Origin: Candidatus Yanofskybacteria bacterium
GTDB taxonomy: Bacteria; Patescibacteriota; Minisyncoccia; 2-02-FULL-40-12; IGHO2-12-FULL-4
Reading direction: 5' to 3'
DNA: 64,000 nucleotides
Assembly: GCA_016185525.1 (NCBI GenBank)
Contig: JACPNK010000006.1
Location: forward strand, 115,440-179,439
A model generated the notes under the pieces. The model saw only the letters and a program-made list of their open reading frames with translations. It made no database searches and was not told the origin of the DNA. Both the position numbers and the translations under genes were made by a program. Below are positions 14,332 to 50,397 of the stretch, piece by piece. Every line of letters starts with the position of its first letter. Position 1 is the stretch's first letter.

Positions 14332-14358
14332 TTAGCACTCTTGACACGAGAGTGCTAA
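14332..14358 (+). promoter_or_regulatory. CIRCE operator (HrcA binding site)
   Basis: TTAGCACTC-N9-GAGTGCTAA perfect inverted repeat 20 nt upstream of hrcA. Confidence 0.9.
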
Positions 14359-14377
14359 CTGCTAAAATGGAAACAAT

Positions 14378-15121
14378 ATGACGGACAGGCAGAAACAAAT
14401 TTTAGAGGAGCTGATCAGGGAGTATGTGAAAGGCGCTGAACCCGTCAGCTCTAATTTTTTGGCAGGAAAATGTGCCCGCCTGCCGGACGGGCAGGGTTTT
14501 GACTGCAGTCCAGCGACAATAAGGGCGGAGATGTTAAATTTGGAAAAGGAGGGTTTTCTTGCCCAGCCACACACTTCAGCCGGCCGTATTCCGACCGATA
14601 AGGCCTACAGATATTTTGTTGATTATCTTTTGAAGGAGAAAGAAGAGATTTTGCCGGAGAAAGATCGTAAAGCGATAGACAAAACTATTTCTTCTGCCTC
14701 GCGCGATCCGCATGCTTTAAGTTCCGGTTTGGCCAAGACTATGGCCGGTCTAACTGACGATTTTGTAATTAGCGGCATTCCTGATACGGGGGAGTTTTTC
14801 CGTGTTGGTTTTTCCAATATCTTTGAGTTGCCTGAATTTCAGGAAACAGAAGATGTGCTTGGACTGGGAAATATGTTTGATGAATTTGAAAACTATTTTG
14901 AATCATTTTTTGATAAGATAGAAAGAAATGAACTGCTCGTTTCTATAGGCAGAGAGAATCCGACCGGCGAAGTAAGCAACGAGACGGTAATTATCGCCAG
15001 CTATCCGTTGCCTATGGGTTATGAGGGCATATCGGCTGTAATCGGTCCAATGAGAATGGCTTACGACAGAAATATGGCCTTATTAAAATATGTAGCAAAA
15101 AGGATGAACCAATTAAGATAA
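14378..15121 (+). CDS. hrcA: heat-inducible transcription repressor HrcA (short form)
   Basis: N-terminus matches HrcA (EPVSS, SPATIR, EKEGFLAQPHTSAGRIPT). Confidence 0.85.
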   Translation: MTDRQKQILEELIREYVKGAEPVSSNFLAGKCARLPDGQGFDCSPATIRAEMLNLEKEGFLAQPHTSAGRIPTDKAYRYFVDYLLKEKEEILPEKDRKAIDKTISSASRDPHALSSGLAKTMAGLTDDFVISGIPDTGEFFRVGFSNIFELPEFQETEDVLGLGNMFDEFENYFESFFDKIERNELLVSIGRENPTGEVSNETVIIASYPLPMGYEGISAVIGPMRMAYDRNMALLKYVAKRMNQLR

Positions 15122-15172
15122 CTGTTACAAGTTGTAGGTTATAGGTTTTATGTCTCCCAGAAAATATAAAAA

Positions 15173-15200
15173 ACTTATAACTTATAACTTATAACTTATA
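15173..15200 (+). repeat. perfect heptanucleotide tandem repeat (acttata)x4 abutting the clpC start codon
   Basis: Four exact 7-mers end 3 nt before the ATG at 15204; degenerate inverted copies (aggttat) lie at 15137-15150. Confidence 0.9.
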
Positions 15201-15203
15201 ACA

Positions 15204-17882
15204 ATGTTGTGCGATATTTGCAAAAAAAATCAGGCAACCGGCAGAGTAACGGTCATCAAGAACGGCGCCAGAGAAGTCAAAAACATCTGCCGGCAGTGTT
15301 CGCAAAATTCTTCCGGCTTGGGCGGTTTTAACAGAGGCGGCCGGTCTTCTTCTTACGGCGGCGGTCTCAATGATATTTTTGGGGGTCTTTTGGGTGATAT
15401 ATTCGGACAAGGCGAGGGTCTTGGCGCTCAAGATTTAAATCTGCCGGGTTGGGGCGGGCAGGGACCGTCGGAGGAAAGGATAGACTTTAACGATTATCTT
15501 TCTGACGAAGCCAGTCGGGTTTTGGACAGAGCCGCAAAATTCGCCCAAGACAGTAAAAACCCGGTTGTTGATACCGAGCATCTTTTGCACAGTCTTTTGC
15601 AATCCGAGACCGTTGCTGGTATTTTGAAACAACTTAAAATTGAAACCAGGGACATAGAGAAGGAACTGAAAGAAAACATCGTTTTGGGCAAAGAAAGACC
15701 GGAAGAGCTAGAGTATTCACCGCGCTTAAAAAGGATTTTTGATCTTTCTTTGGATGAGGCCAGGGCACTTAATCATAATTATATCGGTCCGGAACACTTG
15801 GCGCTTGCTTTAGTTAAAGAAGGCGAAGGCGTGGCCAGCCAGGTTTTGAAGAAGTTTGGGTTAGTTGATGCCGGTGTTTTGAGGCAAAAAGTTATTAAAA
15901 AAGTAGGCAGGGGAAACGCGGAGAGCGTAATCAAAATGAACACTCCGACTCTGGACAAATTTTCCAGAGATCTGACCCAGCTTGCCAGAGAGGGCAAGTT
16001 GGATCCGGTTATAGGCAGGTCAAAAGAGATTGAAACAGCCGTGGAAATTTTATCCCGTAGAACAAAAAATAATCCGGTATTAATCGGTGAGCCGGGAGTG
16101 GGTAAAACAGCCATTGTTGAGGGGCTGGCGCAAAGGATTGTCGCCGGCAATGTTCCGGAGTCGTTATTCGGCAAAAGAGTGGTTGAACTGGACTTGGCGG
16201 CTATTTTATCCGGCACCCGTTTCCGAGGCGATATGGAAGAACGGTTAAAAATGATTATTGACGAAATTAAAGACAACAAAGACAAACTGGTTACTTTTAT
16301 TGACGAGATACATCTTTTGGTCGGTATAGGTTCAGGTGGGGAATCAAGCATGGATGCGGCAAATATTTTTAAACCATCTTTGGCTCGTGGCGAACTGCAC
16401 GTTATGGGGGCGACGACTTTGAAAGAGTACAAAAAATATATTGAAAAAGATCAGGCTTTGGAAAGGCGTTTCCAGCCGATTACTGTGCCGGAACCTACGG
16501 TAGAGCAGACAATAGAAATTCTTAGGGGTTTGCGCGACAGATACGAATCGCATCACCGGATTAAAATTTTAGATGAGTCTTTGGTTGCCGCCGCCGAACT
16601 TTCTAACAGGTATATCACTTCCAGATTTTTACCCGATAAGGCTATTGATTTAATGGACCAGGCGGCCGCTCGGGTCAGAATACAATCTACCGTGGAACCG
16701 GATGAAGTCAGGGGAATGGATGAAAAAATCCACTCCTTAAAAAAGGAACTGGAGGCGGTTCAGCGTTCAAAGAAAACCAAAGAATTTGAAGCGATAAAAA
16801 AGGAAATCTCCGATCTTGATAAAAAAAGAGAGAGTTCTTTTGACAAGTGGCAGGAGCAGAAAGCCAGGACAATACCGGAGGTTAACGCTAAGTCAATCGC
16901 AGAAGTGGTATCCAGGCTGACTGGCGTACCGGTCAGCGACTTAACCGAAGAGGAAAGAGAAAAACTTTTAAATCTTGAGAAAAAACTGGGCTCCAGGGTA
17001 ATTGGCCAAGGGGAAGCTATTGAAGCGGTCTCGCAGGCAATAAGGCGTTCCAGAGCGGGTCTAGGCGATCCAAACAGGCCTATTTCCTCATTCCTTTTCT
17101 TGGGGCCGACCGGAGTCGGTAAAACTGAACTTTCCCGTTCTTTGGCTTTTGTCTTGTTTGGCGATCAGGAAGCGATGATCAGACTGGACATGTCCGAATA
17201 TATGGAGAGGCACAACGTTGCTCGGCTGGTAGGCGCGCCTCCGGGGTATGTCGGCTACGAGGAAGGCGGACAACTGACCGAAGCGGTGCGCCGCCGTCCG
17301 CACTCAATAATTCTTTTGGATGAAATTGAAAAAGCACATCCGGATGTTTTTAATATTCTGCTCCAGGTTTTAGAGGATGGCCGTCTGACAGACGGTCAAG
17401 GACGTTTGGTTGATTTTTCAAATACCGTGATAATCGCCACCAGCAATATCGGTTTTGAGCTGATTCAGCACGAATTTGACAAAGAAGAAAAAAAGAGAAT
17501 GCCTTACGAAGAGTTAAGAACAAAAATTAAAGAAGAACTCAAGCATCATTTCAGGCCGGAGTTTCTTAATCGCATAGACGAAATAATTGTTTTCAGAAGT
17601 TTGTCAAAAGAACAGATAGGCCAGATTGTTAAATTACAGCTGGTTTTCCTGAAGGCCAAATTAAACCACTCCGGTTTTGGTTTGGAAGTAAGCCAGCCGG
17701 CTGTTGATGCCATTGTTGAAAAAGGTTACGACCCGCATTTTGGGGCAAGAGAACTAAGGCGGATTATTCAAAGAGAGGTTGAAAATAGGATTTCCGACAT
17801 GATACTTAAAGATAGACCCAAGAAGGGTTCGGTCGTAGATGTGGATTTTAAAAACAAAGAGTTTGTTCTATCATTGAAGTAA
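15204..17882 (+). CDS. clpC: ClpC/ClpB-type double AAA+ chaperone with N-terminal ClpX-like C4 zinc-binding domain
   Basis: N-terminal C-x2-C-x19-C-x2-C, a Gly-rich linker, two Clp_N repeats, two Walker A/B AAA modules, a short middle domain and a VGYEEGG motif. Confidence 0.85.
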   Translation: MLCDICKKNQATGRVTVIKNGAREVKNICRQCSQNSSGLGGFNRGGRSSSYGGGLNDIFGGLLGDIFGQGEGLGAQDLNLPGWGGQGPSEERIDFNDYLSDEASRVLDRAAKFAQDSKNPVVDTEHLLHSLLQSETVAGILKQLKIETRDIEKELKENIVLGKERPEELEYSPRLKRIFDLSLDEARALNHNYIGPEHLALALVKEGEGVASQVLKKFGLVDAGVLRQKVIKKVGRGNAESVIKMNTPTLDKFSRDLTQLAREGKLDPVIGRSKEIETAVEILSRRTKNNPVLIGEPGVGKTAIVEGLAQRIVAGNVPESLFGKRVVELDLAAILSGTRFRGDMEERLKMIIDEIKDNKDKLVTFIDEIHLLVGIGSGGESSMDAANIFKPSLARGELHVMGATTLKEYKKYIEKDQALERRFQPITVPEPTVEQTIEILRGLRDRYESHHRIKILDESLVAAAELSNRYITSRFLPDKAIDLMDQAAARVRIQSTVEPDEVRGMDEKIHSLKKELEAVQRSKKTKEFEAIKKEISDLDKKRESSFDKWQEQKARTIPEVNAKSIAEVVSRLTGVPVSDLTEEEREKLLNLEKKLGSRVIGQGEAIEAVSQAIRRSRAGLGDPNRPISSFLFLGPTGVGKTELSRSLAFVLFGDQEAMIRLDMSEYMERHNVARLVGAPPGYVGYEEGGQLTEAVRRRPHSIILLDEIEKAHPDVFNILLQVLEDGRLTDGQGRLVDFSNTVIIATSNIGFELIQHEFDKEEKKRMPYEELRTKIKEELKHHFRPEFLNRIDEIIVFRSLSKEQIGQIVKLQLVFLKAKLNHSGFGLEVSQPAVDAIVEKGYDPHFGARELRRIIQREVENRISDMILKDRPKKGSVVDVDFKNKEFVLSLK

Positions 17883-20580: not shown

Positions 20581-20587
20581 TCCTACC

Positions 20588-20626
20588 ATCAAGGTTGAAC
20601 CTTGATTTATAAGGCGTCGCCTTGAT
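20588..20626. repeat. two adjacent palindromes of the caagg-N-ccttg family
   Basis: atcaaggttgaaccttgat then aaggcgtcgcctt; further copies at 314..332 and 21165..21182. Confidence 0.8.
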
Positions 20627-20801
20627 ATTTCAATTTGTCGATCCTTATTCACCTTGGCAAAGAGGTACTAACGAAAATACCAACAGGCTTATCCGAATTT
20701 GAAATTAAAAAAGCCGAGATTAGACTTAATTCTCGGCTCAGATAGAGGTTAAACCTCTATCATAAAAGGGGTGGAGTTCTAAAGAAATTTCACAATCTTA
20801 G

Positions 20802-21080
20802 TTAGTCGTACGAGCCGTCATGGAAAGAGTAACCACAACAGAGGCAAAGCGCTATAAAAGCAATTACAGCCTCAGTCTTTTTTCTTCCACACTTCACACA
20901 CTGCCACGCCTGTACTTCTTTATACCGTGCCATCGGACTTCCACAATGATAACTTGTCCAATAATTTTTCTGGCCGAATACTCCCGGATTAGGTTTAAGT
21001 TGTTTCTCACCGATAATCTTCCACTCTGGTTCGTGGTTACGACATTGACCATGTAAACACTCAGAATTGTATTGGTTCAT
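20802..21080 (-). CDS. small cysteine-rich protein with C-terminal TM helix (hypothetical)
   Basis: 92-aa ORF in a ~1-kb mostly non-coding island, flanked by caaggcgtcgccttg palindromes. Confidence 0.45.
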   Translation of the reverse strand: MNQYNSECLHGQCRNHEPEWKIIGEKQLKPNPGVFGQKNYWTSYHCGSPMARYKEVQAWQCVKCGRKKTEAVIAFIALCLCCGYSFHDGSYD

Positions 21081-21515
21081 AGCAATCTCCTTTTTCGGGT
21101 GCTAATTTATATAGTACACAAAAATCAAAATAAAGTCAATCAAACTGCAATGGCTTAAGGTATGTCAAGGCGTCGCCTTGATATTTCAGCTTTTTCCGGT
21201 GTGGGGCTTTTTTATTGCAAAATTATGTCTTGGTGCCGAGCTTGGTTGAGGTTTGGTCACTTTCCGTCGAATATGGCTGAGCAAAGACAAATAAACGAAA
21301 ACTTTAGAAATCAAGGCCGGTAATAAAAAATTGGTGGGATGGTTTCGACCGGTACCAATTTTTTGTCGGCTTGATGATAAAGTTGAGTATTATTTGTTTG
21401 CGAGGTCCATCTCGTAAGGAAAGTGATCAGACCGAAACTTTAAAAATCTACCCTTTATTAACTCTCTCCGCCCCGAACAAATTGCCTTGCAATTTAACGG
21501 GGTAAATATACTCTC

Positions 21516-22088
21516 CTATTTTTTCTCTACACGCTCAACGTAGTTTCCGTTTTGTGTGTTTAGTCTGATAATATCGCCTTCGTTGATGAAGAGGGGGACG
21601 TTGATGATGGCGCCGGTTTCTAGTTTAACTTGCTTGACTCCGCCTTGAGCGGTATCGCCACGGATTGCCGGAGGAGCTTCTATAACTTTAAAATCCATTT
21701 TTACGGGCAATTCAATGTTGATTATTTTTTGATTGAACAAGATGGCCTTTGTTACAGTATTGGCTTTGAGAAATTTTACAGCATCACCGATGAGCTCTTG
21801 GCTTAATTGAAATCTTTTGCCCGGATCATTTTCATGGCAAAACCAGTACTCTTCCCGGTGGTTGTATAGAAATTTTACATTTTGATACTCAATATCGGCT
21901 TCTTCAAAAACGTCAGATTGCTGGAAATTTCTTTCATAAAGTTTGCCGTTGAGCATGTTTTTCATTTTGGTTTGCATAACCGGTCTTCTTTGCTGCATCT
22001 TAAGATGATGCGTTTCAAGCACCGCATAAGGCTGGCCTTCGTAAATAAAAAAGACTCCGGGTTTTAAGTCATTCATGCCTATTGACAT
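21516..22088 (-). CDS. efp: elongation factor P
   Basis: KPG at the N-terminus and three OB-like domains typical of EF-P. Confidence 0.9.
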   Translation of the reverse strand: MSIGMNDLKPGVFFIYEGQPYAVLETHHLKMQQRRPVMQTKMKNMLNGKLYERNFQQSDVFEEADIEYQNVKFLYNHREEYWFCHENDPGKRFQLSQELIGDAVKFLKANTVTKAILFNQKIINIELPVKMDFKVIEAPPAIRGDTAQGGVKQVKLETGAIINVPLFINEGDIIRLNTQNGNYVERVEKK

Positions 22089-25469: not shown

Positions 25470-25610
25470 AAAAATTAATCTAATTTCTAATTAACCTAAT
25501 TGACCTAAACAATACCCAACTGCCAAGTTCCAAAAAGGTTTTAGTTGTTGGTCATTGTGGATTTGGGATTTATTTAGAATAATTAGAGCAATTAGAAATT
25601 AGAAATTTCT
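25470..25610. repeat. AT-rich repeated intergenic element (copy 1) with aattaga/ctaatt motifs
   Basis: Shares a 14-nt identical block (aattaacctaatt) and caattagaa motifs with 27270..27402. Confidence 0.7.
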
Positions 25611-27269: not shown

Positions 27270-27402
27270 AAATTAACCTAATTATTCTAATTTTTAATTT
27301 TTCTAATCAATTTCTAATATTTAATACTCTCAATTCCCAAAAAATTCTAGAAATTAGATTTTGGTTTGTTGTGGTTTGATTAGGTTAATTAGTGTAATTA
27401 GA
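27270..27402. repeat. AT-rich repeated intergenic element (copy 2)
   Basis: Homologous to 25470..25610, same orientation, between def and fmt. Confidence 0.7.
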
Positions 27403-27864
27403 TCAATTAGAATAATTTTTACTGACTTTTTCTTTTATCAAGACTCCGTTTAAGTGGTCAGTTTCGTGCTGAAGCACTCTTGCCAGGAAACCCCTGGCTT
27501 TTATTTTTATTTTGTTGCCGTTTTCGTCCAGTGCTTTTATTTTTATTTTTTTAGCTCTTGCAACAGATGCAAAATATTCCGGCAGAGAGAGACATCCTTC
27601 TTCCATTTCGGTTTTATCTTTTGAGTATTCGGTAATTTCCGGATTGATGTAAGCATCTGGCACTTTATTTTCTTCCGCCAGTTTTTTATCAATAACAAAA
27701 ATTGCCAAGTTTTGGCCGACTTGATTTGCCGCCAAGCCGACGCCAAGCGACTCAACCATCTGCTTTTTCATATTCGAAATCAACCCTCGTATTTCCGGAG
27801 TTATCTCCTTGACTTCTTTTAGTTTTTGTGATAGTATTTTACTTGGATGTTTTACAATTTGCAT
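27403..27864 (-). CDS. def: peptide deformylase
   Basis: GVGLAANQ, EGCLS and HETDH motifs. Confidence 0.9.
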   Translation of the reverse strand: MQIVKHPSKILSQKLKEVKEITPEIRGLISNMKKQMVESLGVGLAANQVGQNLAIFVIDKKLAEENKVPDAYINPEITEYSKDKTEMEEGCLSLPEYFASVARAKKIKIKALDENGNKIKIKARGFLARVLQHETDHLNGVLIKEKVSKNYSN

Positions 27865-27888
27865 ATCGCATTAGGATGGGAGGTATTT

Positions 27889-28083
27889 ATGGGTTTTTTT
27901 ACTTTATTCCTTTATATTTTGGGCATTGCTTTTATTTTTGGTGTGGGGGGCTTTATTTTTGAAAAAAATCAAGGTTTTACAAATAGAGAGGCAATACAAA
28001 CCTTCTCTGGTGTATTTTGGGCTGCCTTATTTTTGCTTTGTTTTGTGCTACTTGTGTCCTTTCTGTGTTCTTATTTTATTTGA
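27889..28083 (+). CDS. small two-TM membrane protein (hypothetical)
   Basis: GGGAGG RBS 6 nt upstream of the ATG at 27889; the track ORF starts earlier at 27847 and overlaps the def start. Confidence 0.35.
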   Translation: MGFFTLFLYILGIAFIFGVGGFIFEKNQGFTNREAIQTFSGVFWAALFLLCFVLLVSFLCSYFI

Positions 28084-28101
28084 TTTTCCGTTCCTAATTC
28101 A

Positions 28102-29967
28102 CTAAACAACTTCTATTTGCCATCCGCTTGGCACTAAGCGTAACAACTCGTTGCGCCGCGCCCCGTAGTGAGCCGAAGGTTCTACTATGGGGTTTTTTAC
28201 TACTTTTAAAACAATTTCTTGCGTATGTAGTCCTTTTTCTTTTAATCCTGCATTTGGTCCGATAATTTCAATTTCTTTCCCATAATTCTTAATTCCTAAT
28301 TCATGATTCAACCTTTCTCTTACTATTTCCGCCTCTCTTTCCGCTGTTCTCGAATCTTGGTGGCGGAAGATTAATTTAATAAGTTCGGCAAATGGGGGAT
28401 AGCTGAATTCTTTTCTAGCCTCAAGCTCTTCTTCGTAAAAACTTTTAAAGTCTTGGCTTAAAATTGTTTTTACCACTCTTGCGTCGGAATCGTAGCCTTG
28501 GATTAAGGTTTTTTCTGTCATTTGAGACAAAATAAAAACTATTCTTAAGGCTTCTTCTTCTGTTCCAAAATCAACAAAATTTAGTAAAGATTCTAAGTTT
28601 AATATACCAACTAAATCGGCTTTTAGCAAGCGCTGATAGCTCAATATTTTTTGTGTTGTCAGCAGGATTGCCGGTCCCGGATTTTTAAATTGGTCTATAA
28701 TTTTTTCTTCCTCTTTTTGCGGAGTGTCGCTGCTTAAGGCCAGTATTTTTGGCGAAGTTATATTCTGGTCTTTGAAAAACTTTACCAACTTTTCCTCGGC
28801 TTTTTCTATGCCCAAGCCCTTATATTCCAAAACTGATTTGTTGCAGTTGGGGCAGACATTTAATGTTGGCTGTATGTTTTGACAGTGATGACATTTTAAA
28901 ATTGTTTTAGGTTTTAAGTTATAAGTTGTAAGTTTAAAGGCAGTCAGGTTTCGATCGCAGTTTGGACATCGGGGAATATAGCCGCAGTTTTGGCACAGAA
29001 GATACGGGGCATAGCCTTTGCGCGGTACGAATATTATAATTTTGTTTTTTTGCTGTACCGCCGATTTCAGTTGCTCTTTAAGTTCAGCGCTGAAAATTGA
29101 AAAATTGGTATTTTTAATTTCACCGACCATGTTGGCGAATGAGATATCAACTTTTGTTTTTTGGGGCAATGTCTCTTCTCCAAATTCAAAATATGTTTCT
29201 ACTTTCGGCAAAGAATCGTTTATGATTAATTTGGCTCCGTATTCTTTGGCGGTTCGTCTGGCCAAAATGCCGGTATCGTATTTGGGGGTGTAGTCGGAAC
29301 GGTAGGCGATATTTGACTCGGCTTCCACAATTATTTCTTTGAGGTTGTTAAAAGGCAAAAACAAAGCGACTCTGGTGCCGACTATTGTTTTTATTTCTCC
29401 GTTTTTAACTCTTTGCCAAATATCAAAATATTCTTTGGTTGGAGTACTGCTTGAAAGAAAAACGGGATTTTCTTTTTTGTATTTCTCCAAGAAGTGTTCG
29501 GCCATTATTTTTTCGGGAGTTAAAATAAGTTTTTGTCCTTGGTTACTGAGGTCTGGCGAGTATGCCTCTTCTTTGCGTCGGACTTGTCGCCGACGAACTG
29601 CAGAAGAGGCATACTCGCCAGACCTCTTAAGCAAAAATGCCGGTAACATGGCTTTAACGCACAAACCCAGTGGCGCAAAATATTTTACCGAGAGCCACAA
29701 AGCGATATTTAGCTGATGTTGGTTGAGAACAGGCTGTTCTTTTAGAATTTTGCCTATTGGTTTCAGCTCAAAATCAGCCTCTTTTTTAAGCTTGATTTTT
29801 AACTCCGCCAGACTTTTTGAAGCCAACACGACTGCGGTTATCTTTCTTTTTCTTATCTCAACTTCAACCAAAGCGCCTGCTGGTAGCTTTTCTTCATAAA
29901 AATAACTCAAGATCTGGTCCTGATTTCTGGGAATTGCGGTTAGGGGGATAACCTCAAGAATATACAT
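28102..29967 (-). CDS. priA: primosomal protein N' (PriA) with degenerate helicase motifs
   Basis: N-terminal 3'-DNA-binding domain, a Cys-rich zinc-binding insert (CQNCGY, CPNCD, CHHCQ, CPNC) and a C-terminal domain. Walker A reads SSSTPTKE and DEAH reads EAES, so both are degenerate. Carries two in-frame repeat insertions. Confidence 0.75.
   Translation of the reverse strand: MYILEVIPLTAIPRNQDQILSYFYEEKLPAGALVEVEIRKRKITAVVLASKSLAELKIKLKKEADFELKPIGKILKEQPVLNQHQLNIALWLSVKYFAPLGLCVKAMLPAFLLKRSGEYASSAVRRRQVRRKEEAYSPDLSNQGQKLILTPEKIMAEHFLEKYKKENPVFLSSSTPTKEYFDIWQRVKNGEIKTIVGTRVALFLPFNNLKEIIVEAESNIAYRSDYTPKYDTGILARRTAKEYGAKLIINDSLPKVETYFEFGEETLPQKTKVDISFANMVGEIKNTNFSIFSAELKEQLKSAVQQKNKIIIFVPRKGYAPYLLCQNCGYIPRCPNCDRNLTAFKLTTYNLKPKTILKCHHCQNIQPTLNVCPNCNKSVLEYKGLGIEKAEEKLVKFFKDQNITSPKILALSSDTPQKEEEKIIDQFKNPGPAILLTTQKILSYQRLLKADLVGILNLESLLNFVDFGTEEEALRIVFILSQMTEKTLIQGYDSDARVVKTILSQDFKSFYEEELEARKEFSYPPFAELIKLIFRHQDSRTAEREAEIVRERLNHELGIKNYGKEIEIIGPNAGLKEKGLHTQEIVLKVVKNPIVEPSAHYGARRNELLRLVPSGWQIEVV
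28909..28940. repeat. gttttaagttataagtt dispersed repeat (family 3) in-frame in priA
   Basis: 17 of 17 nt identical to 50151..50167; degenerate agttata heptamers; encodes KLTTYNLKPKT. Confidence 0.75.
29548..29629. repeat. palindromic repeat element (family 2), copy 2, in-frame in priA
   Basis: Perfect 24-bp inverted stems (gaggtctggcgagtatgcctcttc / gaagaggcatactcgccagacctc) enclose the same core as 10212..10288. Confidence 0.85.
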
Positions 29968-33833: not shown

Positions 33834-33847
33834 ATTTCTTAAAAATC

Positions 33848-33883
33848 TACTGAGAAGCTACTGAGAAGTTGAACTTATCAGTA
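33848..33883. repeat. REP palindrome with half-site direct repeat, 5' flank of the RAYT gene
   Basis: tactgagaag x2 half-sites, then the 25-bp palindrome tactgagaagttgaacttatcagta. Confidence 0.85.
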
Positions 33884-33905
33884 GAACATGTTAAATTTCT
33901 GAAAT

Positions 33906-34550
33906 ATGCATAAAGAATATTTTACCAATGGGGAATTTTACCATGTGTATAATCGCGGAAACAATAAGCGAAAAATTTTTTTGGATCAAAGAGACTTTAA
34001 AAGATTTTTTCAAAGCATACGGGAATTCAATTCGGAAGAACCGATTGGTAGTATATATCTTAATTCTTTTAAGGACGCCTCGCTTAGAAGTTCAACTTCT
34101 AAGTTAGTTGATTTTGTTTGTTTTTGTTTAAATCCAAATCATTATCATTTTATTCTCAAGCAACTAAAAGAAAGGGGTATTGAAAAGTTTTTACATAGAC
34201 TTGGCACGGGTTATACTAAATATTTTAATGAAAAACATAAATGCAGTGGCTCTCTTTTTCAGGGCAGGTATAAAGCGATACACTTAAACTCTAATGAATA
34301 CCTACTACATCTTAGTGCCTATGTGAATTTAAATTATGAAGTTCACCAACTGAGAAGTTCAACTTATCAGTGTGATTATAAATCTAGTTGGGCAGAATAT
34401 CAAAACAACTTGGTAGAAAGTATATGTAATAAAGACATTGTACTTTCTCAGTTTAGAAACTTTGATAAGTATAGGGAATTTGCAGTTAATGCTATTCAAA
34501 TAAGTAGGACCAAAAAAGATATGGAAAAGTTGTTATTGGAAGAGGTCTGA
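33906..34550 (+). CDS. REP-associated tyrosine transposase (RAYT; IS200-like HuH Y1 transposase, TnpA_REP)
   Basis: YHVYNRGNNKRKIF N-terminus, HuH motif NHYHFIL, GRYKA and Y..N C-terminal tyrosine region are typical of COG1943 RAYTs; the gene is flanked by inverted REPs. Confidence 0.8.
   Translation: MHKEYFTNGEFYHVYNRGNNKRKIFLDQRDFKRFFQSIREFNSEEPIGSIYLNSFKDASLRSSTSKLVDFVCFCLNPNHYHFILKQLKERGIEKFLHRLGTGYTKYFNEKHKCSGSLFQGRYKAIHLNSNEYLLHLSAYVNLNYEVHQLRSSTYQCDYKSSWAEYQNNLVESICNKDIVLSQFRNFDKYREFAVNAIQISRTKKDMEKLLLEEV
34083..34103. repeat. REP palindrome inside the RAYT coding sequence, copy 1 (in-frame)
   Basis: cttagaagttcaacttctaag encoding LRSSTSK. Confidence 0.85.
34350..34370. repeat. REP palindrome inside the RAYT coding sequence, copy 2 (in-frame)
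   Basis: ctgagaagttcaacttatcag encoding LRSSTYQ. Confidence 0.8.
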
Positions 34551-34557
34551 CTCTGAT

Positions 34558-34645
34558 CACTGATAAGTCACTGATAAGTTGAACTTCTCAGTAAAAACTT
34601 CTCAGTAAAAACTTCTCAGTAAACTTCTCAGTAAATTTCTCAGTA
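34558..34645. repeat. REP palindrome plus tandem half-site array, 3' flank of the RAYT gene
   Basis: cactgataagt x2, palindrome cactgataagttgaacttctcagta (inverted relative to the 5' REP), then (aa)aacttctcagta x4 tandem. Confidence 0.9.
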
Positions 34646-34749
34646 AAAGGTTTCGAACTATTACGCGGCAGTGCATCGTGTATTTGACTACTTGCAGGAT
34701 ATCTGCTAGGGTCGATTTGCTTTTTAATAATTAGTGAAAGGATAGAAAA

Positions 34750-37180: not shown

Positions 37181-37726
37181 TCATTTTCTGTTCTGGTTCC
37201 CCCATTTGAAAGGTTTTTCTCTTTGTGATTTATAAAACATCATTCTGTTTCTGATTTCTTGAAGTTTTTTGTGGTCAAGGCCGTTCATTTCTTTTTTTGT
37301 AAATCCTCTCTGGCCTTTTGTAACATTTAAACCCTCTCTTCTGTTTTTGTTTACTATTTTAACCGCGCAGCTCCATAGTTGGAAGTCAATCCCCTTTTTT
37401 GCGTAGAGTTTATGTCTTTTAAAAAATGGTATAATTTTTTCTACTAGATCTTTCGGATTTTGGACCGAGAATCTAACCTGATTCTGTTTTTTTATTATAA
37501 CGACCGACCCACAGCCAAAAGTTTCTTTGATTAAGTTTAATATGTTAAAATCGTCAGATCTTAAAACAATGGCAAATTCAGTATTCCAGTAAAAATACTC
37601 TCGGAATTTTTTATTGTTCTTATTTTGTTTTTTATCCCTTCTAAATTTAAGAGCAAAACAACCCTCCCCGTCTACAAAGCCAGCTATGTAATTGCCAGGC
37701 AACTTAGCGACTGTATTTTTATCCAT
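37181..37726 (-). CDS. free-standing LAGLIDADG homing endonuclease
   Basis: LAGLIDADG motif (YIAGFVDGEGCF) 12 aa after the internal Met; the track ORF extends to 37792; ~181 aa, the single-motif homodimeric class. Confidence 0.8.
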   Translation of the reverse strand: MDKNTVAKLPGNYIAGFVDGEGCFALKFRRDKKQNKNNKKFREYFYWNTEFAIVLRSDDFNILNLIKETFGCGSVVIIKKQNQVRFSVQNPKDLVEKIIPFFKRHKLYAKKGIDFQLWSCAVKIVNKNRREGLNVTKGQRGFTKKEMNGLDHKKLQEIRNRMMFYKSQREKPFKWGNQNRK

Positions 37727-37824
37727 ATTATAAATTATACTACAATCACATTGCGTCGCACAAAAGTTTAAAACGAAGGTTATCAACAGCAACCAAAAAG
37801 TAAAAAACTCCTTTGGTTAGGAGT

Positions 37825-39519
37825 CTACAATTCGTCAATTAATTTTTTAAATTTTTCTATAATTTCTTTTTTTCTGGGTTTAAGCGTCGGAGTTAAGATT
37901 AAATCTGTTTGGCTGCTTAAAATCGCTATGTTGCCTATTTTCATTAATCCCTTCCCTATCGCCCCGGTTTTGGACTTTAGAGTTTCGTGAAGTTTCGCAA
38001 GACCTTTTTTGTCAGAGGGTCTGTTGTTTAAAAAAATGAGAGCAATTTGATACGGTTTGTTTTTTCCACATATGACAACTTCTGCTTGGGGGTCAACGTC
38101 TCTTATTTTGTCCTTAACTTCTTGCTCCAGTTTCTGGATGCTTTCTCCTGTCACGTACTCCCCTTGTGCCGTTTTGTAGCCTTCGCCGATTCTTCCTGTT
38201 ATAGATATGGTTTTGTTTGAAAAGTTAAACTTTCCAGTGTCTTCAGTATGATAGAGCCGTTCTCGCAACGGTTCTTCCGTGGGCGGATGGGTTTGGTAAA
38301 TTTTTTCTTCAAAATGGTTTTCATTGGCTTTTGGGTTGTTGTAGTAGCCGAGCATGACGGCTTTTCCTGTTACCACGATTTCTTTGCTGAAAGGTTCAAG
38401 AAAAACTTGGTTTGTGTTTCCTATAACCGCACCGTTCAAGAGTAGCGGTCCGGCCGTTTCCGTTTGGCCGTAAATGTCCATTATGTTTAGACCAAGTTTG
38501 CGGAAAAAATTAATCTCGTGGCGGCTTATTTCCGATCCGGCGCTGATTGCGATTCTTGTATGATCTAGGCCGAGCTCTTGTTTAATTTTGTCTTTAAGAA
38601 AATAAATCGGGACTAATCCGGCTAACTTACCGGCAAGTTTTAGTTTTTCTTTGACTCCGGTCTCAATGTTTATCCAAACTTTGGGTACGCCCAAAAAAGC
38701 GGTTGGCCTTACCCTTTTGAGTATTGACGTAAATTTTTCTTTCAGTTTTTCCCTGTCGGTTGAAAATTCGGTAAAGTATACCGTATATCCTCCGATTAAC
38801 TGGCCAAAAAAAGAGGCAATAAGTTCAGAAATGTGTCCCAATGTCATATAAGATAAAACTCTATCTTCGGGACCAATTTGCAAGGCTTTAATTACAGCCT
38901 TGGTTCTGTCTAAGATATTTTCATGCGACAGCATCACTCCCTTTGGTCCGCCGGTGGTGCCGGAAGTGTAGGGCATTATCAGTAGGCGGTTTGGGTTGCG
39001 GACTTTGTCATTGTGGTAAAGCCTTTTAACCCCTTTGTTTTTGCATATCTTTTTTCCCAATGCCAGTAACTGTTCAACTGTTATTGTGGTGTGGCCATTT
39101 TCTTTGTATTCATCTGCCAAACACTCACTGATGAGAGTAATTTTAGGTTGGCAATGGTCTAAGATGGCCTTGACTTTGTCAGGCTCTTTTAAAAGCATGG
39201 GGTGTATCGGCACGGGTACCCCCCCTGCCATAATAATTCCCAGAATAGTGAAAAAAGATTCCGGCAGATTTACCGGTACTATGGCGACAAAGTTTTCTTT
39301 TTCTGATTTTGACGGGTCAACTAAATTTAAGTCTTGCAAAGCGATTGCCGCTGAAAATGCGTGACAGTGCAAGTAATCTTCCCAAGAGTATTTTTCTTTA
39401 GTGCCGTCTTTTTTAAGCAAGACCAAGGCCGGTAACTGATGACCTTTTCTTCTTAATTCTTCTTCCTTTTCAAAGAGAGTAGTAATAATATCTGCCACTT
39501 TCCCGTCCCCTATTTTCAA
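37825..39519 (-). CDS. AMP-dependent synthetase/ligase (long-chain fatty acid--CoA ligase-like)
   Basis: AMP-binding motif YTSGTTGGPKGV and an acyl-activating fold. Confidence 0.8.
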   Translation of the reverse strand: MKIGDGKVADIITTLFEKEEELRRKGHQLPALVLLKKDGTKEKYSWEDYLHCHAFSAAIALQDLNLVDPSKSEKENFVAIVPVNLPESFFTILGIIMAGGVPVPIHPMLLKEPDKVKAILDHCQPKITLISECLADEYKENGHTTITVEQLLALGKKICKNKGVKRLYHNDKVRNPNRLLIMPYTSGTTGGPKGVMLSHENILDRTKAVIKALQIGPEDRVLSYMTLGHISELIASFFGQLIGGYTVYFTEFSTDREKLKEKFTSILKRVRPTAFLGVPKVWINIETGVKEKLKLAGKLAGLVPIYFLKDKIKQELGLDHTRIAISAGSEISRHEINFFRKLGLNIMDIYGQTETAGPLLLNGAVIGNTNQVFLEPFSKEIVVTGKAVMLGYYNNPKANENHFEEKIYQTHPPTEEPLRERLYHTEDTGKFNFSNKTISITGRIGEGYKTAQGEYVTGESIQKLEQEVKDKIRDVDPQAEVVICGKNKPYQIALIFLNNRPSDKKGLAKLHETLKSKTGAIGKGLMKIGNIAILSSQTDLILTPTLKPRKKEIIEKFKKLIDEL

Positions 39520-44226: not shown

Positions 44227-45267
44227 TTAGTTTTGTTTGAAATAATTCCTAATCAAGTTCCAGTCATTGTTTTTGGGCAAAAGAACATAAGCGTTGTTTT
44301 GAGCGGTTTCATAAAGCAAGTTTTCGGTGGTTATCGTCTTGGTTTGCAGTTTTTCTGCGGAGTTAAAAGTGAGAGCAAGCTGGAGAATGTTTTTTGTGTC
44401 CCAGATATTAAAGTCTGTGGAGATGTTATTTTTCAAACTGTTGGCCAGAGAAGTTATTTTAACCGGATTACTTAAGATTCCCAGACTTAGAGCCTTTTTT
44501 TTGACAGCCAAAATTATTTCTTGCTGTCTCCTTGAGCGGTCAAAGTCGTTTGTGCTGTAGCGCGATCTGGCATAGTAAAGAGCCGTCTGGCCGTCTAGGT
44601 GGTTTTCTCCGGCGGACAGACTAAACTCATAGCCCCACTGCGACTTTTCTTCAAAAGGTTTTTCTAAGACAATATCTATACCGTCCAGAGCATCAACTAT
44701 TTCTTTAAATCCTTGGAAGTCAAAGACTACTATTTTATCAATAAAAATCCCGCTTATTCTTGAAAAGGAATTTTTTGCAAAATTGGTTTTGTCTTTCTTG
44801 GACAGACCTCTTTCGTAAATCTCGTTTGCTTTTCCTTTAAAAAGGCCCGGCAGGTCAATGTAGAGATCTCTGGGTATTGAAGTTAAGGAAGCTTTTTTGC
44901 TTTCGTCACGAAAGCTGAAAAGCATGATGCTGTCGGTCAAAAGTCCCCCGTCCGGGTCATCAACGCCTCTTATGCCAAGAATTAAAACGTTCAATCTTCC
45001 GGCTTCTTCTTCTGGCATCGGAAAATTTTTGTTCAACTCCTCTTGCTGATTAACTTCCTCACCCTTTTTTGAGGTTAAAAGCGCGCTTGCCCTTTTTAAC
45101 CAGGAAGACTGTTTTTCTATGATTATAGTGCTTGATTTGTCAAAAAGTAGCAGTAAACCGAGGAGTAATAATATGATTAAGGCCAAACTCAAACCAAAAC
45201 GTTTTTTGCTTGACGATTTTTCGTTGAAGTCACTTTGTTGAAAACTTGTCTGGTTCATATAAACCAT
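44227..45267 (-). CDS. LytR-CpsA-Psr (LCP) family cell-envelope polymer transferase
   Basis: N-terminal TM; LNVLILGIRGVDD...LTDSIMLF LCP core. Confidence 0.75.
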   Translation of the reverse strand: MVYMNQTSFQQSDFNEKSSSKKRFGLSLALIILLLLGLLLLFDKSSTIIIEKQSSWLKRASALLTSKKGEEVNQQEELNKNFPMPEEEAGRLNVLILGIRGVDDPDGGLLTDSIMLFSFRDESKKASLTSIPRDLYIDLPGLFKGKANEIYERGLSKKDKTNFAKNSFSRISGIFIDKIVVFDFQGFKEIVDALDGIDIVLEKPFEEKSQWGYEFSLSAGENHLDGQTALYYARSRYSTNDFDRSRRQQEIILAVKKKALSLGILSNPVKITSLANSLKNNISTDFNIWDTKNILQLALTFNSAEKLQTKTITTENLLYETAQNNAYVLLPKNNDWNLIRNYFKQN

Positions 45268-46316
45268 TTTGCCATTTGTTCGGGACCAACTTCGGCTTTA
45301 AGCATAATTTCTTTTCTTTTTTTGAACATTTTGGGTGTCAGACTGATTAATTTTGGTATCTCAAGCAAAACAGAAGGTTCAAACAAAACAGCATAACCCA
45401 ACTCCTGAATTTCCCTTCTTAAGATCCGGGGTAAATTTTGTAAAACATTAATCCAGTAATCATTTTTTAATCTGGCTAATCTCTTGTTTCTCCAGTCCAA
45501 TCTTTTTTTGAGGGCGGGTATTTTTTTTCTCTCGCCCGTTCTTTTAAAATAGTCGAGCCAGCTTTTACTCACGCCTTTAGTGGTGGAACGGTCGTGGTAC
45601 ATAATAACGGGCGGGCTATAAATTTGTTTCCAGCCAAACAAACGCATGCGCCAGACTAAGTCAATATCGTCCCCGTACCAAAACATATCATGATCTACGA
45701 TTTCACCTGTAATCACGGAATCTTCAAGAGCTTCTCTGCGGAAAATGGGCGCGGCGCCCTCAACTCCAAAAACCTCCATTTCTTTGTCGTATTGTCCATT
45801 GTCCAATTCCCCATGCCCAAGATTTATAATTTTTCTTGAGCGGAAAATGCCAAATCCTACCGTATCAATGATTTTTTCTTGTAACTCCGGCCGGAATGTT
45901 TGGGTCTGCAGTTTGTTAATGTCGTATTGATAGATTTTAGCTTGCAGAGCTCCTATTCTTTCATCTTTTTCCATGACTACCACAGACTTTTCCACCGTGT
46001 CCGGCGCAAACAGAACGTCAACGGAAAGAGCTATAATATACTTTCCGTACGAATAATCTAAGGCTTTTTCCTGACCGCCCCACATCCCATAATTAATTTT
46101 GTTTTCAATAAAGTTAGTCATTTGCCATTTGCCATTTGCCATTTGCCATTCGCGGATTATTTCTTTTGTTTTGTCTGTTGAGCCGTTGTCAAAAATATTT
46201 ATCTCTAAATTGCTGTAAGTTTGGTTTTTCACGGCATCCAAACAATACTGGATATACTTTTCTCCATTTAAAACCACCAAGTTTATTGTAACCAGTGGAC
46301 TTGACATAAAACACAT
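45255..46316 (-). CDS. family 2 glycosyltransferase carrying an internal heptanucleotide repeat tract
   Basis: GT-A fold (VVLNGEKY, DNGSTD); contains (atttgcc)x4 encoding WQMANGKWQMTN. Confidence 0.75.
   Translation of the reverse strand: MCFMSSPLVTINLVVLNGEKYIQYCLDAVKNQTYSNLEINIFDNGSTDKTKEIIREWQMANGKWQMTNFIENKINYGMWGGQEKALDYSYGKYIIALSVDVLFAPDTVEKSVVVMEKDERIGALQAKIYQYDINKLQTQTFRPELQEKIIDTVGFGIFRSRKIINLGHGELDNGQYDKEMEVFGVEGAAPIFRREALEDSVITGEIVDHDMFWYGDDIDLVWRMRLFGWKQIYSPPVIMYHDRSTTKGVSKSWLDYFKRTGERKKIPALKKRLDWRNKRLARLKNDYWINVLQNLPRILRREIQELGYAVLFEPSVLLEIPKLISLTPKMFKKRKEIMLKAEVGPEQMAKWFI
46120..46154. repeat. perfect heptanucleotide tandem repeat (atttgcc)x4 plus one degenerate unit inside the GT2 CDS
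   Basis: Read directly from the sequence, 46120..46147 perfect and 46148..46154 attcgcg. Confidence 0.95.
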
Positions 46317-48285: not shown

Positions 48286-49397
48286 AGTTCTTTGAAGATT
48301 TGTATCAGTTTTTCAGTATGTTTTTCCCAGTTGAATTTTGATGTTATTCGCGGACTGTTCAGAATAACTTCTTCCATTTTCTGTCTGTTGTTTAACGCCC
48401 GTTCTATTGCCGACGCTATCTGCTGCGGGTCGGTCTCGTCTTGGACGAAAAAAGCGCTGCCTTCGTAAATTTCTTTGTTCAAATCGTTATTCTTAACCAG
48501 AGGCGGTGTGCCCAAGGCGAGAGCTTCAAGCGGAGGCAGTCCCATGGCTTCGGAGGTGGAAAGGTAAATAAACAGCTTGGCTCCGGCAATTAAAAATTTC
48601 AAATCTTCATCTTTGTCTATATAATCATAATGCATAACCCGCTGACCGCCTAATCTTTTATTGGTTTCTTGAATAAGACTTTTTAAAATCGGCGGATTGT
48701 ATTTGTCTTGGCCGACCAAAATTAGTTTCAGGTCTGGAAATTTATCCGCAAGTATTTCAAAAGCTTGAATTGTTTCTTTGGCTCTTCTGCGGGGTAAGGC
48801 TTGGCCGACATAGAGTAAATAGGTTCTAAGTTTTAGGTTATAGGTTATAGGCTTATTTGGTTGGTCTATGCCGAGATAATTCACCATTATTCTTTCGGGG
48901 GGGATTTTGAAGAGTTGAGAAATTTCTTTTTTGGCGGATTCAGTGAAAGTTGTGATTTTGGTGGCTCTTTTTGCCGCCCAGTTGCTGAAAAGCAGATAAC
49001 TTATGCGGTACTTCCAGGGATGGGTGCCGAATTTATATTCGTAGTAAACATCGTTGGTTAAAACCACTAAAGACTTACCCAAGAAAAAAAGAGGCAGCAT
49101 AAAACCGGGGAAAAAGGTTGCGTTAATTTTGTCGCGCAGGCAAGCCAAAGGCAAAAGAACGTGAAAGAATATATTATAAGATGGGCGCAGAAAAGGCAGT
49201 TTTAAAACCTTTTTTACGAAGATCGGATTGTTGAGATAGGGGTCGTCCGGGACGAACCCTTTGAAGTATAAGTAAAATTTGAACTCTTTTGCGAGTTCAG
49301 ATTTTTTTGATATCTCTTCCAGTATCTTTGATAAATGTCTGCCTATCCCCCATCTTTTATTTTCCAAATTGTGGCACTCTATGGCAATTTTATACAT
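48270..49397 (-). CDS. family 4 (GT1-fold) glycosyltransferase
   Basis: C-terminal EAMGLPPLEALALGTPPL GT-B signature; the track ORF runs to 49490, and the internal Met at 49397 avoids overlap. Confidence 0.75.
   Translation of the reverse strand: MYKIAIECHNLENKRWGIGRHLSKILEEISKKSELAKEFKFYLYFKGFVPDDPYLNNPIFVKKVLKLPFLRPSYNIFFHVLLPLACLRDKINATFFPGFMLPLFFLGKSLVVLTNDVYYEYKFGTHPWKYRISYLLFSNWAAKRATKITTFTESAKKEISQLFKIPPERIMVNYLGIDQPNKPITYNLKLRTYLLYVGQALPRRRAKETIQAFEILADKFPDLKLILVGQDKYNPPILKSLIQETNKRLGGQRVMHYDYIDKDEDLKFLIAGAKLFIYLSTSEAMGLPPLEALALGTPPLVKNNDLNKEIYEGSAFFVQDETDPQQIASAIERALNNRQKMEEVILNSPRITSKFNWEKHTEKLIQIFKELCSIR
48828..48856. repeat. family 3 repeat (agttttaggttataggttatagg) in-frame in the GT4 gene
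   Basis: Encodes KPITYNLKLRTY. Confidence 0.7.
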
Positions 49398-49440: not shown

Positions 49441-50397
49441 TTATTTTGGAACAATCGCTCCGAATTTATTTTTATAAAAATCCAACACACCTTCTATGAT
49501 GGCATCGGCGGCGGGTGCTTTAGACGGCATAACAAACATTTTAACCAAATTTTTCAAAACGATATAACCTGACCAGAAAATCAAAAAAGGCTTAACTGTC
49601 CAAGGCGCGTTTAAGCTGTTGAATATCAGGGCGTTTCTCGAGTGGTAGCGTAAAACAATAGGCGAACCGAGTTTTTTTGTGGTTGCGGAAACTTTGTGGT
49701 GGACTATGGCTTCCGGGACAATTTTCAGCTCATAGCCGGCTAACTGGGCTCTTATATTTAAATCCGCATCCTCAAAATACAGAAAATAAATTTCGTCAAA
49801 ACCTTTGATTTTTTCCAGCACCTCTTTTTTAACTAGCATAGCCGCGCCGATTACATATTCTTTTGGTTTAAGGTATTTTTCGGCTGGTGGTGTGCTGGAA
49901 TGAGTTAGCTCTGTTTTCAGCCAAGAGATTTTACCAAAGTAAGCTGTTTTCTGGCCTTCTTTGATTGCTGGTCCGATTATGCCGACTGTTGGGTCGGTCT
50001 CTGCTGCGGCGATCAGTTTTTTTAAAACATCCGGCTCAACCACGGTGTCGTTGTTTAAAATAAAAATACAATCGGCTCCTTTTTCTAGGGCATATTTTAT
50101 ACCAACATTGTTTCCGCCGGCGTAGCCCAGGTTGGAGGGGTTTGTTATAAGTTTTAAGTTATAAGTTTTAGGATTAACTTGACTTTCTGTATAACTTTTG
50201 ATATTATTAACTTCAGCTTCGTTTGAAGCGTTGTCCACTACGACAATTCTAAAGTTTGGATAATCTAGTTCTTTTAAAGATTCCAAACACTCCAAGGTGT
50301 CTTGGGAGTTGTTGTATTGGAGAACGATTATGAAAACAGAAGGAGGAAACATGATTGGTGCTGTTTTATTTATTTTTGTTTGCATTATTTTGCTCAA
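49441..50397 (-). CDS. family 2 glycosyltransferase
   Basis: FIIVLQYNNSQDT...VVVDNAS GT-A signature. Confidence 0.75.
   Translation of the reverse strand: MSKIMQTKINKTAPIMFPPSVFIIVLQYNNSQDTLECLESLKELDYPNFRIVVVDNASNEAEVNNIKSYTESQVNPKTYNLKLITNPSNLGYAGGNNVGIKYALEKGADCIFILNNDTVVEPDVLKKLIAAAETDPTVGIIGPAIKEGQKTAYFGKISWLKTELTHSSTPPAEKYLKPKEYVIGAAMLVKKEVLEKIKGFDEIYFLYFEDADLNIRAQLAGYELKIVPEAIVHHKVSATTKKLGSPIVLRYHSRNALIFNSLNAPWTVKPFLIFWSGYIVLKNLVKMFVMPSKAPAADAIIEGVLDFYKNKFGAIVPK
50144..50173. repeat. family 3 repeat (gttataagttttaagttataagttttagg) in-frame in the GT2 gene
   Basis: Encodes NPKTYNLKLITN. Confidence 0.75.

Follow-up and report, generated by a model that had tools for sequence, protein, structure and literature searches.

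A conserved inverted heptamer array with a predicted intercistronic hairpin in the hrcA–clpC spacer of a Candidatus Yanofskybacteria heat-shock operon

The hrcA–clpC junction and its heptamer arrays

The 64,000-nucleotide stretch of Candidatus Yanofskybacteria contig JACPNK010000006.1 analysed here (the window; positions are counted from its first letter) carries a heat-shock operon in which the repressor gene hrcA is followed by the gene of a ClpC-type unfoldase. The complete 82-nucleotide (nt) spacer between the two genes is an AT-rich imperfect palindrome made of inverted heptamer arrays, which, inside the operon, separates the repressor gene from the first of its targets. Bacteria of the candidate phyla radiation (CPR) have small, tightly packed genomes with few Shine–Dalgarno (SD) sequences and many apparently leaderless genes, and to our knowledge almost nothing is known of expression control inside their operons. 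The locus comprises the following features.

14332–14358, + strand: perfect CIRCE (controlling inverted repeat of chaperone expression) operator for HrcA, TTAGCACTC-N9-GAGTGCTAA, 0 mismatches against 0.02 expected
14341–14368, + strand: sigma-70-type promoter TTGACA-16-TAAAAT with extended TG, 11/12 matches
14378–15121, + strand: hrcA, heat-shock repressor (Pfam HrcA, E 6.5e-14), stop codon TAA at 15119–15121
15122–15203, + strand: AT-rich imperfect palindrome, the complete hrcA–clpC spacer
15124–15151, + strand: 5' arm, four degenerate heptamers GTTACAA GTTGTAG GTTATAG GTTTTAT
15152–15174, + strand: purine/A-rich loop GTCTCCCAGAAAATATAAAAAAC, including a degenerate fifth unit AAAAAAC
15175–15202, + strand: 3' arm, four perfect TTATAAC units (Tandem Repeats Finder, TRF)
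15204–17882, + strand: clpC, ClpC-type AAA+ unfoldase (Pfam Clp_N, AAA, AAA_lid_9, AAA_2, ClpB_D2-small)

The CIRCE operator overlaps the TTGACA-16-TAAAAT element, which is likely the promoter of the hrcA-clpC-dnaJ-like operon. The spacer itself does not have the identity of a CIRCE, the perfect copy being the one upstream of hrcA; a second, degenerate CIRCE-like site with 3 mismatches lies at 21079–21105, in a 935-nt region without a long open reading frame (ORF; 20581–21515). Relatives keep the gene order hrcA-clpC-(257 amino acids)-dnaJ-like. ClpC homologues with 75–95% identity come from Yanofskybacteria or Parcubacteria, and homologues in Candidatus Yanofskybacteria are named ClpC. The PriA encoded in the window is identical to a protein of a Candidatus Yanofskybacteria metagenome-assembled genome. 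Scanning from the promoter to clpC outside the hrcA coding sequence yielded no further promoter-like site and no terminator-like site, and the 82-nt spacer gave no match to either. Canonical GC-rich terminators with a U tract are used elsewhere in the window; the AT-rich hrcA–clpC stem is therefore a different device.

The ATG at 15204 is the true clpC start, because the MLCDIC N-terminus is common to the relatives and an in-frame TAA (15192–15194) lies 9 nt upstream. No SD sequence precedes this ATG, and only 17 of the 62 ORF starts in the window show even a 4-mer SD match. An earlier interpretation made from the letters of the window (the sequence-only reading) had placed the array in the ribosome-binding region of clpC; this is correct by position, whereas its role as a ribosome-binding site is moot given such scarcity of SD sequences. 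At least ten genes have a TGnTAAAAT-like extended −10 box ending ~7 nt before the ATG (for example the starts at 7094, 21516–22088, 30740, 33906, 35300 and 39600), which suggests widespread leaderless or very short-leader mRNAs, and leaderless first cistrons, in this Yanofskybacteria genome. Residues 1 to ~95 of ClpC (15204–15500) form an extension ahead of Clp_N, with a CxxC...CxxC arrangement (MLCDICKK...NICRQC) and a Gly-rich linker; the extension is kept in CPR relatives (L002–L004) and looks like a zinc-ribbon adaptor domain.

From 5' to 3', the spacer runs from four degenerate units through a purine-rich loop and a further degenerate unit to four perfect ones. TRF reports AACTTAT ×4.4 with 100% matches at 15172–15202, and the letters at 15168–15206 resolve into AAAAAAC, four TTATAAC units, a single A and the ATG, the periodic run ending at 15202, 1 nt short of the start codon. 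The perfect (acttata)×4 described in the sequence-only reading at 15173–15200 is in the correct phase, and the degenerate inverted copies noticed upstream of it are real and more extensive, amounting to the complete four-unit array of the 5' arm. (TTATAAC)n gives a TAA in each of the three forward frames within 21 nt.

The two arms are complementary as a 31-nt inverted repeat, 81% in DNA and higher in RNA, where G residues of the 5' arm form G-U pairs with the 3' arm. The predicted RNA hairpin has a free energy of −27 kcal/mol (z −4.37 against dinucleotide shuffles; z −6.4 for the predicted fold of the spacer alone) and a stem of 23–27 bp of A-U and G-U pairs, in which the array supplies one arm. 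The consensus stem derived from three species closes at G15124:C15202, which sets the stem base 2 nt past the hrcA stop codon and 1 nt ahead of the clpC AUG. Two predicted registers, offset by a single heptamer, differ little in energy (−22.0 and −23.7 kcal/mol), because the 3' arm has one good unit more than the 5' arm. In the predicted ensemble, the probability of being unpaired is ~0.65 for the final 8 nt ahead of the AUG and ~0.09 for most of the array, which is double-stranded. No Rfam family reached its gathering threshold with the spacer as the query, the sub-threshold matches being to generic miRNA-precursor hairpins; over the window, tRNA alone passes the threshold.

Conservation, unit number and covariation among relatives

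The sister species, represented by three assemblies (L082, L088 and L138; ClpC 91% and HrcA ~80% identical to the window), has a spacer of the same layout in which all four units are kept. Identity to the L088 spacer is 75/82 (91.5%), with 6 substitutions and one 1-nt indel. The loop contains 3 of the substitutions and the indel, 2 of the 3 arm substitutions preserve pairing, and the only change near the array in L082, L088 and L138 is A15201 to G in the last unit. Over the same distance, the four-fold degenerate sites of the flanking genes are 44% (hrcA) and 56% (clpC) identical, near saturation. The corA–hrcA spacer provides a control: the sister species matches its 46-nt CIRCE/promoter block at 100%, and the rest is not alignable, with random-level identity and an 83-nt indel. 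Because the hrcA–clpC spacer is conserved and the corA–hrcA DNA outside the CIRCE/promoter block is not, the former behaves like a functional cis element.

Unit number was compared in five assemblies of two species (the window, Logan L001, ENA L082, JGI L088 and JGI L138) and is four in all five; the locus is also present in identical form in sequencing run SRR12113431. The sequence-only reading had anticipated length variation of the tract, of which these assemblies show none, and had proposed that unit number tunes clpC initiation by altering spacing. That proposal is not supported: the number is constant, and there is no SD-to-ATG spacing to alter because the genome is mostly without SD sequences. 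The array looks constrained, since a hypermutable tract would not keep both unit sequence and unit number over such a distance.

The same architecture is found in L147 (ClpC 79%), built from GCTATAA/TTATAGC units and differing by two compensatory U-A to C-G double changes. A 14-codon upstream ORF in the window spacer (ATG 15150 to TAA 15194) was considered as a leader peptide and rejected; it is not conserved, since L147 lacks it and the sister species has a version of 9 codons whose frame is shifted. Strong hairpins occupy the hrcA–clpC spacer in L083, L084, L146 and L147 (z −3.6 to −8.3). The spacers of L084, L146 and L093 have related AAGTTATAA-type units of 8–9 nt, and the hairpin of L083 is of unrelated sequence. 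Inverted arrays are also seen in the hrcA–clpC spacers of L091 (982–1073; CAAAAGT-type) and L092 (1743–1829; TAATTAG-type), the latter units resembling two other arrays of the window, at 25470–25610 and 27270–27420. A ClpC-based scan of genome contigs returned relatives at ~50% identity alone, and no heptamer arrays were found at their loci.

Heptamer words, arrays and other hairpin spacers in the window

The sequence-only reading had connected the clpC array to a 17-nt word that recurs inside genes. This 17-mer, GTTTTAAGTTATAAGTT, indeed occurs with 0 mismatches at both 28911 and 50151, and further copies of the word family exist: at ≤3 mismatches there are 14 matches in the window against 0.93 expected, a number reached in 0/100 shuffles. 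The matches fall in five main loci, namely the two arms of the clpC spacer and three genes.

28904–28939, − strand: array in the Cys-rich loop of PriA, sense TTTAAAC TTACAAC TTATAAC TTAAAAC CTAAAAC, encoding ...FKLTTYNLKPK...
48819–48856, − strand: in-frame array KPITYNLKLRTY in a family 4 glycosyltransferase (GT4) gene
50141–50170, − strand: in-frame array in a family 2 glycosyltransferase (GT2) gene, encoding PKTYNLKLITN

The reading frames agree with the earlier description of in-frame copies in priA, GT4 and GT2: the GTTNTAR word family encodes T-Y-N-L-K in all three. No other common frame would be possible, since TAA interrupts the two remaining sense frames. On the plus strand, GTTNTAR is confined to the degenerate upstream arm and the three coding copies, so the single plus-strand orientation claimed for the family applies to these and not to the clpC array, which on that strand is the reverse complement of the 17-mer family. 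Read on the sense strand of each gene, every copy is AACTTAT-like and has the same polarity.

The priA array coincides exactly with a 7-amino-acid (21-nt, three-unit) gap in 5 of 7 close orthologues, the sister species among these, and is by this comparison a lineage-specific 21-nt in-frame addition. Another species, L143, has a related AACTTnn array in the same PriA loop. A second priA array has arisen in place through substitutions, with length unchanged. In the alignment (window 28102–29967), the PriA array replaces a nearly invariant His, changing VHK to AFK. The orthologues compared (P0124, P0126, P0128, P0131 and P0138) have further lineage-specific in-frame insertions near the C-terminus (PAFAKSYGEA, PASAKSYGEA and YPIPSPSGSYGTS), and the window PriA has a 9-amino-acid insertion of its own, VVKNPIVEP.

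Nucleotide-level constraint on the coding arrays was considered and set aside, the gltX array being conserved in the sister species no more than amino acids explain. A covariance model of the whole clpC hairpin found no second copy in the 64-kb window or the relatives' loci; its weak matches (E ~0.5) were the GT2 array and the L084 hairpin. The dispersed entity is the heptamer word and not the whole hairpin. The earlier suggestion of a short mobile sequence tolerated inside proteins is upheld as regards tolerance, by the 21-nt addition in priA, and not as regards mobility, since no sign of transposition was found and the hairpin has no second copy in the window. Local heptamer slippage or homogenisation accounts for the copies better than a mobile element would.

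The window has 11 period-7 arrays of three or more units, against a mean of 0.58 in dinucleotide shuffles (maximum 2 in 40), a ~20-fold excess; 9 of the 11 are within genes. Their density per 10 kb is 1.7 in the window, 1.0 in the sister species and 0–1.3 in other close relatives. Distant control loci (325 kb) have 0.06 per 10 kb, ~30-fold less than the window. A perfect (GCAAATG)×4.6 array at 46114–46150 lies in-frame (EWQMANGKWQM) in the GT2 ORF 45255–46316 (− strand), and a gain or loss of one unit would frameshift this ORF. As a tract in a surface-polysaccharide gene, it is the window's best candidate for true phase variation. It has CAAATGACTAA in common with an intergenic array at 1432–1450.

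Three more co-directional spacers in the window consist of inverted short-unit arrays that extend from stop to start.

25470–25610, − strand: TTCTAAT/ATTAGAA-type inverted arrays in the spacer between an ABC ATPase and an ABC-3 permease gene, stem from nt 2 to 140 of 141, z −6.2
27270–27420, − strand: CTAATT/AATTAG inverted arrays in the def–fmt spacer, the 5' arm running into the def end
1414–1541, + strand: CAAATGA/CAAAATC units and their complements upstream of a gene with in-frame ATG 1542, z −4.0

The ABC ATPase/permease junction of the sister species has a 3-nt spacer, and its def–fmt junction has an unrelated 23-nt spacer together with a shorter Def C-terminus; the two hairpin spacers are therefore lineage-specific gains or losses. 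In L084, a Yanofskybacteria relative at 76% identity, an unrelated, GC-richer 172-nt hairpin (16092–16263; z −5.7) fills the ABC ATPase/permease spacer. Long hairpins filling stop-to-start gaps seem to be common in the clade. The 16-mer TGTGGATTTGGGATTT, made of GGGATTT heptamers, is present both in the ABC-junction hairpin of the window (25556–25573) and in the otherwise unrelated hrcA–clpC hairpin of L083 (6405–6425); different loci and species appear to have repeat words in common. The priA–def spacer (27865–28101) is 237 nt long, and in the sister-species assembly L140 the two genes overlap by 22 nt.

The window also has a 214-amino-acid ORF (33906–34550, + strand, within 33847–34648) for a distant IS200-like Y1 transposase. 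Its best NCBIfam match is 'REP-associated tyrosine transposase' (RAYT; REP, repetitive extragenic palindromic) at 28 bits, below the cutoff of 80. Hairpins of the form ACTGAnAAG-TTGAA-CTTnTCAGTA with tandemly multiplied arms flank the ORF, with 2 left and 1 right arms upstream and 2 left and 5 right arms downstream. A RAYT link to the clpC spacer was rejected, as these CTTCTCAGTA-type hairpins are not GTTATAA arrays and their repeat is not dispersed. Every Logan contig containing the Y1 ORF shows the same context and ends 61 nt past its stop, inside the array, which makes these contigs uninformative on Y1 copy number. A LAGLIDADG homing endonuclease ORF (37181–37792, − strand; Pfam E 3.8e-21) adjoins a 564-amino-acid ORF (37825–39519) and could be an intron- or intein-associated element.

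Possible roles of the spacer hairpin

On balance, we lean towards the spacer hairpin being an intercistronic RNA element with a post-transcriptional role. The spacer would be transcribed within the polycistronic mRNA and would fold in vivo into the 23–27-bp hairpin, whose base would set the hrcA stop and the SD-less clpC start side by side. The 7-nt periodicity would stem from the way the arms originated, through lineage-wide heptamer slippage or homogenisation; with unit number fixed at four, we infer that it is a trace of this origin and not a counting device.

How such an element might act is a separate matter. Tentatively, the 23–27-bp duplex, of a kind that RNase III cleaves, may be a site of RNase III-type cutting or may act as a stability barrier, so that the repressor part of the mRNA and its clpC-dnaJ part would meet different fates. 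Two known systems are similar. In the Bacillus subtilis dnaK operon (hrcA-grpE-dnaK), according to the summary of Homuth 1999 in PMC3446304, hrcA mRNA is cleaved off and decays faster. Both are HrcA/CIRCE operons in which the repressor cistron is separated post-transcriptionally, there by observation and here putatively; the downstream gene here differs, being clpC. In Haemophilus influenzae, the 5' untranslated regions of hmw1A and hmw2A contain an (ATCTTTC)n hairpin that is processed by RNase III; the tract has at least 11 units, is phase-variable and pairs with a non-repeat G-rich arm (PMC12721329). The clpC spacer similarly has a heptamer array as one arm of a long, here predicted, hairpin upstream of a start codon, but its array has four fixed units, an inverted array as the partner and an intercistronic position. 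It is less probable that the hairpin gates or bridges clpC initiation, in which case the two predicted registers would free or bury the final 8 nt before the AUG. To some other role at the RNA level we give little credence.

Several observations weigh against a post-transcriptional role. Only three homologous sequences are behind the covariation, and two of these are nearly identical. Conservation reaches the loop (~87%) and the exact unit sequence, which is beyond what pairing or RNase III needs and therefore hints at a sequence-specific partner. Relatives exist without the element: the hrcA–clpC spacer is 5 nt in L089 and 41 nt without a hairpin in L144, the two genes overlap in L145, and the spacer of L090 has no array. 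The element is evidently dispensable in the clade; it appears old and constrained where present, and not indispensable. When sense and antisense stabilities are compared, the RNA strand is favoured in 7 of 12 spacers, so that stability does not favour it across all of them. In favour of the role, two of the relatives, with hrcA and clpC overlapping or 5 nt apart, make co-transcription and coupling the family norm.

Among the alternatives, the one that survives best, doubtful as we find it, is a selfish or neutral palindromic insertion into a tiny stop-start gap, similar to REP sequences, bacterial interspersed mosaic elements (BIME) or miniature inverted-repeat transposable elements, that persists without function and may owe its formation or movement to a Y1 (RAYT-like) transposase. 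In proteobacteria, REP, BIME and ERIC (enterobacterial repetitive intergenic consensus) palindromes are imperfect, occupy the gaps between genes of operons, form hairpins in the transcript, vary in presence between relatives and are associated with RAYT (Y1) transposases. The clpC-spacer palindrome is likewise intergenic and variably present at the hrcA–clpC junction, two other array hairpins of the window stand where the sister species has only 3 and 23 nt, L084 has its own unrelated hairpin at the ABC junction, and the RAYT-like gene has on both sides hairpins with tandemly multiplied arms of similar style. Yet the spacer is 91.5% identical to that of the sister species despite saturated synonymous sites, neighbouring non-functional intergenic DNA being unalignable, and compensatory pairs are present. 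Furthermore, the whole hairpin is single-copy in the window and the relatives' loci, no dispersed identical copies being found in the former, and the local transposase is flanked by another, non-dispersed repeat family. Neither a common terminal motif nor a target duplication was found; the palindrome also differs from REP sequences in lacking the conserved GTAG foot (the sister species has GCAG) and in having arms that are internally tandem-repetitive.

Rather unlikely, in our view, is a protein-binding heptad array, in which the TTATAAC units, as RNA or DNA, would be iterated sites for a translation factor that binds single strands (S1 or a cold-shock protein, as has been suggested for TAACTGA) or for a DNA-binding regulator. 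Unit sequence, unit number and much of the loop are conserved beyond pairing needs, as this explanation would have it, and a precedent exists in the TAACTGA intergenic direct repeats of marine Beggiatoaceae, some Cyanobacteria and Bacteroidetes (MacGregor 2015, PMC4679880). These form arrays of 2–6 forward copies with stops in all three forward frames, the commonest class ending 1 nt before the start codon, usually without an SD sequence; occasional copies occur at tolerant ORF positions (PMC4679880). They constitute one abundant family of 169 sets with no predicted structure and of unknown function, for which binding by a post-transcriptional regulator was proposed (PMC4679880). The clpC array likewise consists of forward heptamers ending 1 nt before an SD-less ATG, with stops in three frames. 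It differs in its unit (TAACTTA, one base away; the window has no TAACTGA arrays), in pairing with an inverted degenerate array to give a hairpin that is single-copy in 64 kb, and in residing in a genome whose window has many different heptamers. At ctxAB, ToxR acts at TTTTGAT heptads, a reported case of a regulator recruited by heptad repeats.

Against binding at heptads, the homologous units of L084 and L146 measure 8–9 nt, so a period of 7 nt is not maintained; in the predicted hairpin the array is largely double-stranded (probability of being unpaired ~0.09); and three coding regions carry identical words on their sense strand, where nothing points to regulation. No candidate binder emerged. 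The CtsR operator that controls clpC in Firmicutes (the A/GGTCAAANANA/GGTCAAA heptad direct repeat) was tried and gave chance-level matches, none of them in 15100–15210, and the CIRCE is elsewhere.

A phase-variable simple sequence repeat (SSR), in which slippage alters unit number and so tunes ClpC translation, is very improbable. A perfect four-unit tract beside a start codon invites this explanation, and heptamer tracts do act in this way at hmw of H. influenzae, but the count of four is kept in five assemblies of two species across saturated synonymous divergence, there is no SD sequence whose spacing could shift, and clpC is a housekeeping stress gene rather than a surface antigen. Equally hard to sustain is an intrinsic terminator or attenuator after hrcA combined with a separate clpC promoter: a strong hairpin does begin right after the stop codon, but its stem is AT-rich and followed by CAAUGUUG without a U tract (tail CAAUG), the scan found no terminator or promoter match in the spacer, canonical terminators are used elsewhere in the window, and hrcA and clpC overlap or are 5 nt apart in relatives. 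An RNA thermometer (ROSE/fourU-like) that would melt on heat shock to expose the clpC start is the least credible. The heat-shock nature of the operon and an A-U/G-U-rich stem extending to the start codon speak for it, but pairing of the arms is predicted to persist from 10 to 65 °C (probability of being unpaired at most 0.18) and the predicted accessibility of the final 8 nt is flat with temperature; the thermometer was rejected on this ground.

The intercistronic RNA element that we favour is composed of known kinds of parts: start-proximal heptamer arrays, a heptamer hairpin in a 5' untranslated region, REP-like palindromes and an excess of heptamer SSRs. For the last of these, PMC4692102 (citing Mrazek 2007) lists the cyanobacterial short tandemly repeated repetitive (STRR) sequences, GGGAATC in Xanthomonas and GGGGA(T/C)T in Nostoc. 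It attributes the heptamer excess in other bacteria to polymerase slippage, and describes the repeats as mostly of ~4 units, with some inverted stem-loop pairs and fast turnover between related species. The window shares the specific over-representation of period 7, the usual size of ~4 units, some inverted pairs and the fast turnover; those repeats are G-rich, prone to form G-quadruplexes and mostly intergenic, whereas the window arrays are AT-rich, belong to a compact CPR host and are mostly inside genes. The novelty is in their combination: inverted heptamer arrays as a conserved intercistronic hairpin of fixed length, in a CPR HrcA operon and with a lineage-wide set of similar spacers.

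A broader and quite improbable extension is that stop-hairpin-start spacers form a class of their own in this CPR lineage, with the hrcA–clpC hairpin as one example; inverted-array palindromes would colonise the 0–5-nt junctions of coupled SD-less operons and be tolerated, then conserved, through the apposition of stop and start. Terminating ribosomes would then re-initiate across an 80–140-nt insert, in what would be a bacterial version of structure-bridged re-initiation or shunting, and the heptamer-biased slippage or conversion that grows the arrays would also write 21-nt in-frame additions into protein loops.

For annotation, the locus is a warning against taking every perfect SSR beside a start codon for a site of phase variation. 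In essential proteins such as PriA, heptamer arrays are able to introduce or rewrite short segments, and the element connects three phenomena that have been described separately, the heptamer SSR excess, start-codon-proximal heptamer arrays and REP-like hairpins. A hairpin between a heat-shock repressor gene and its main target would offer a testable handle on post-transcriptional control in an uncultured lineage.

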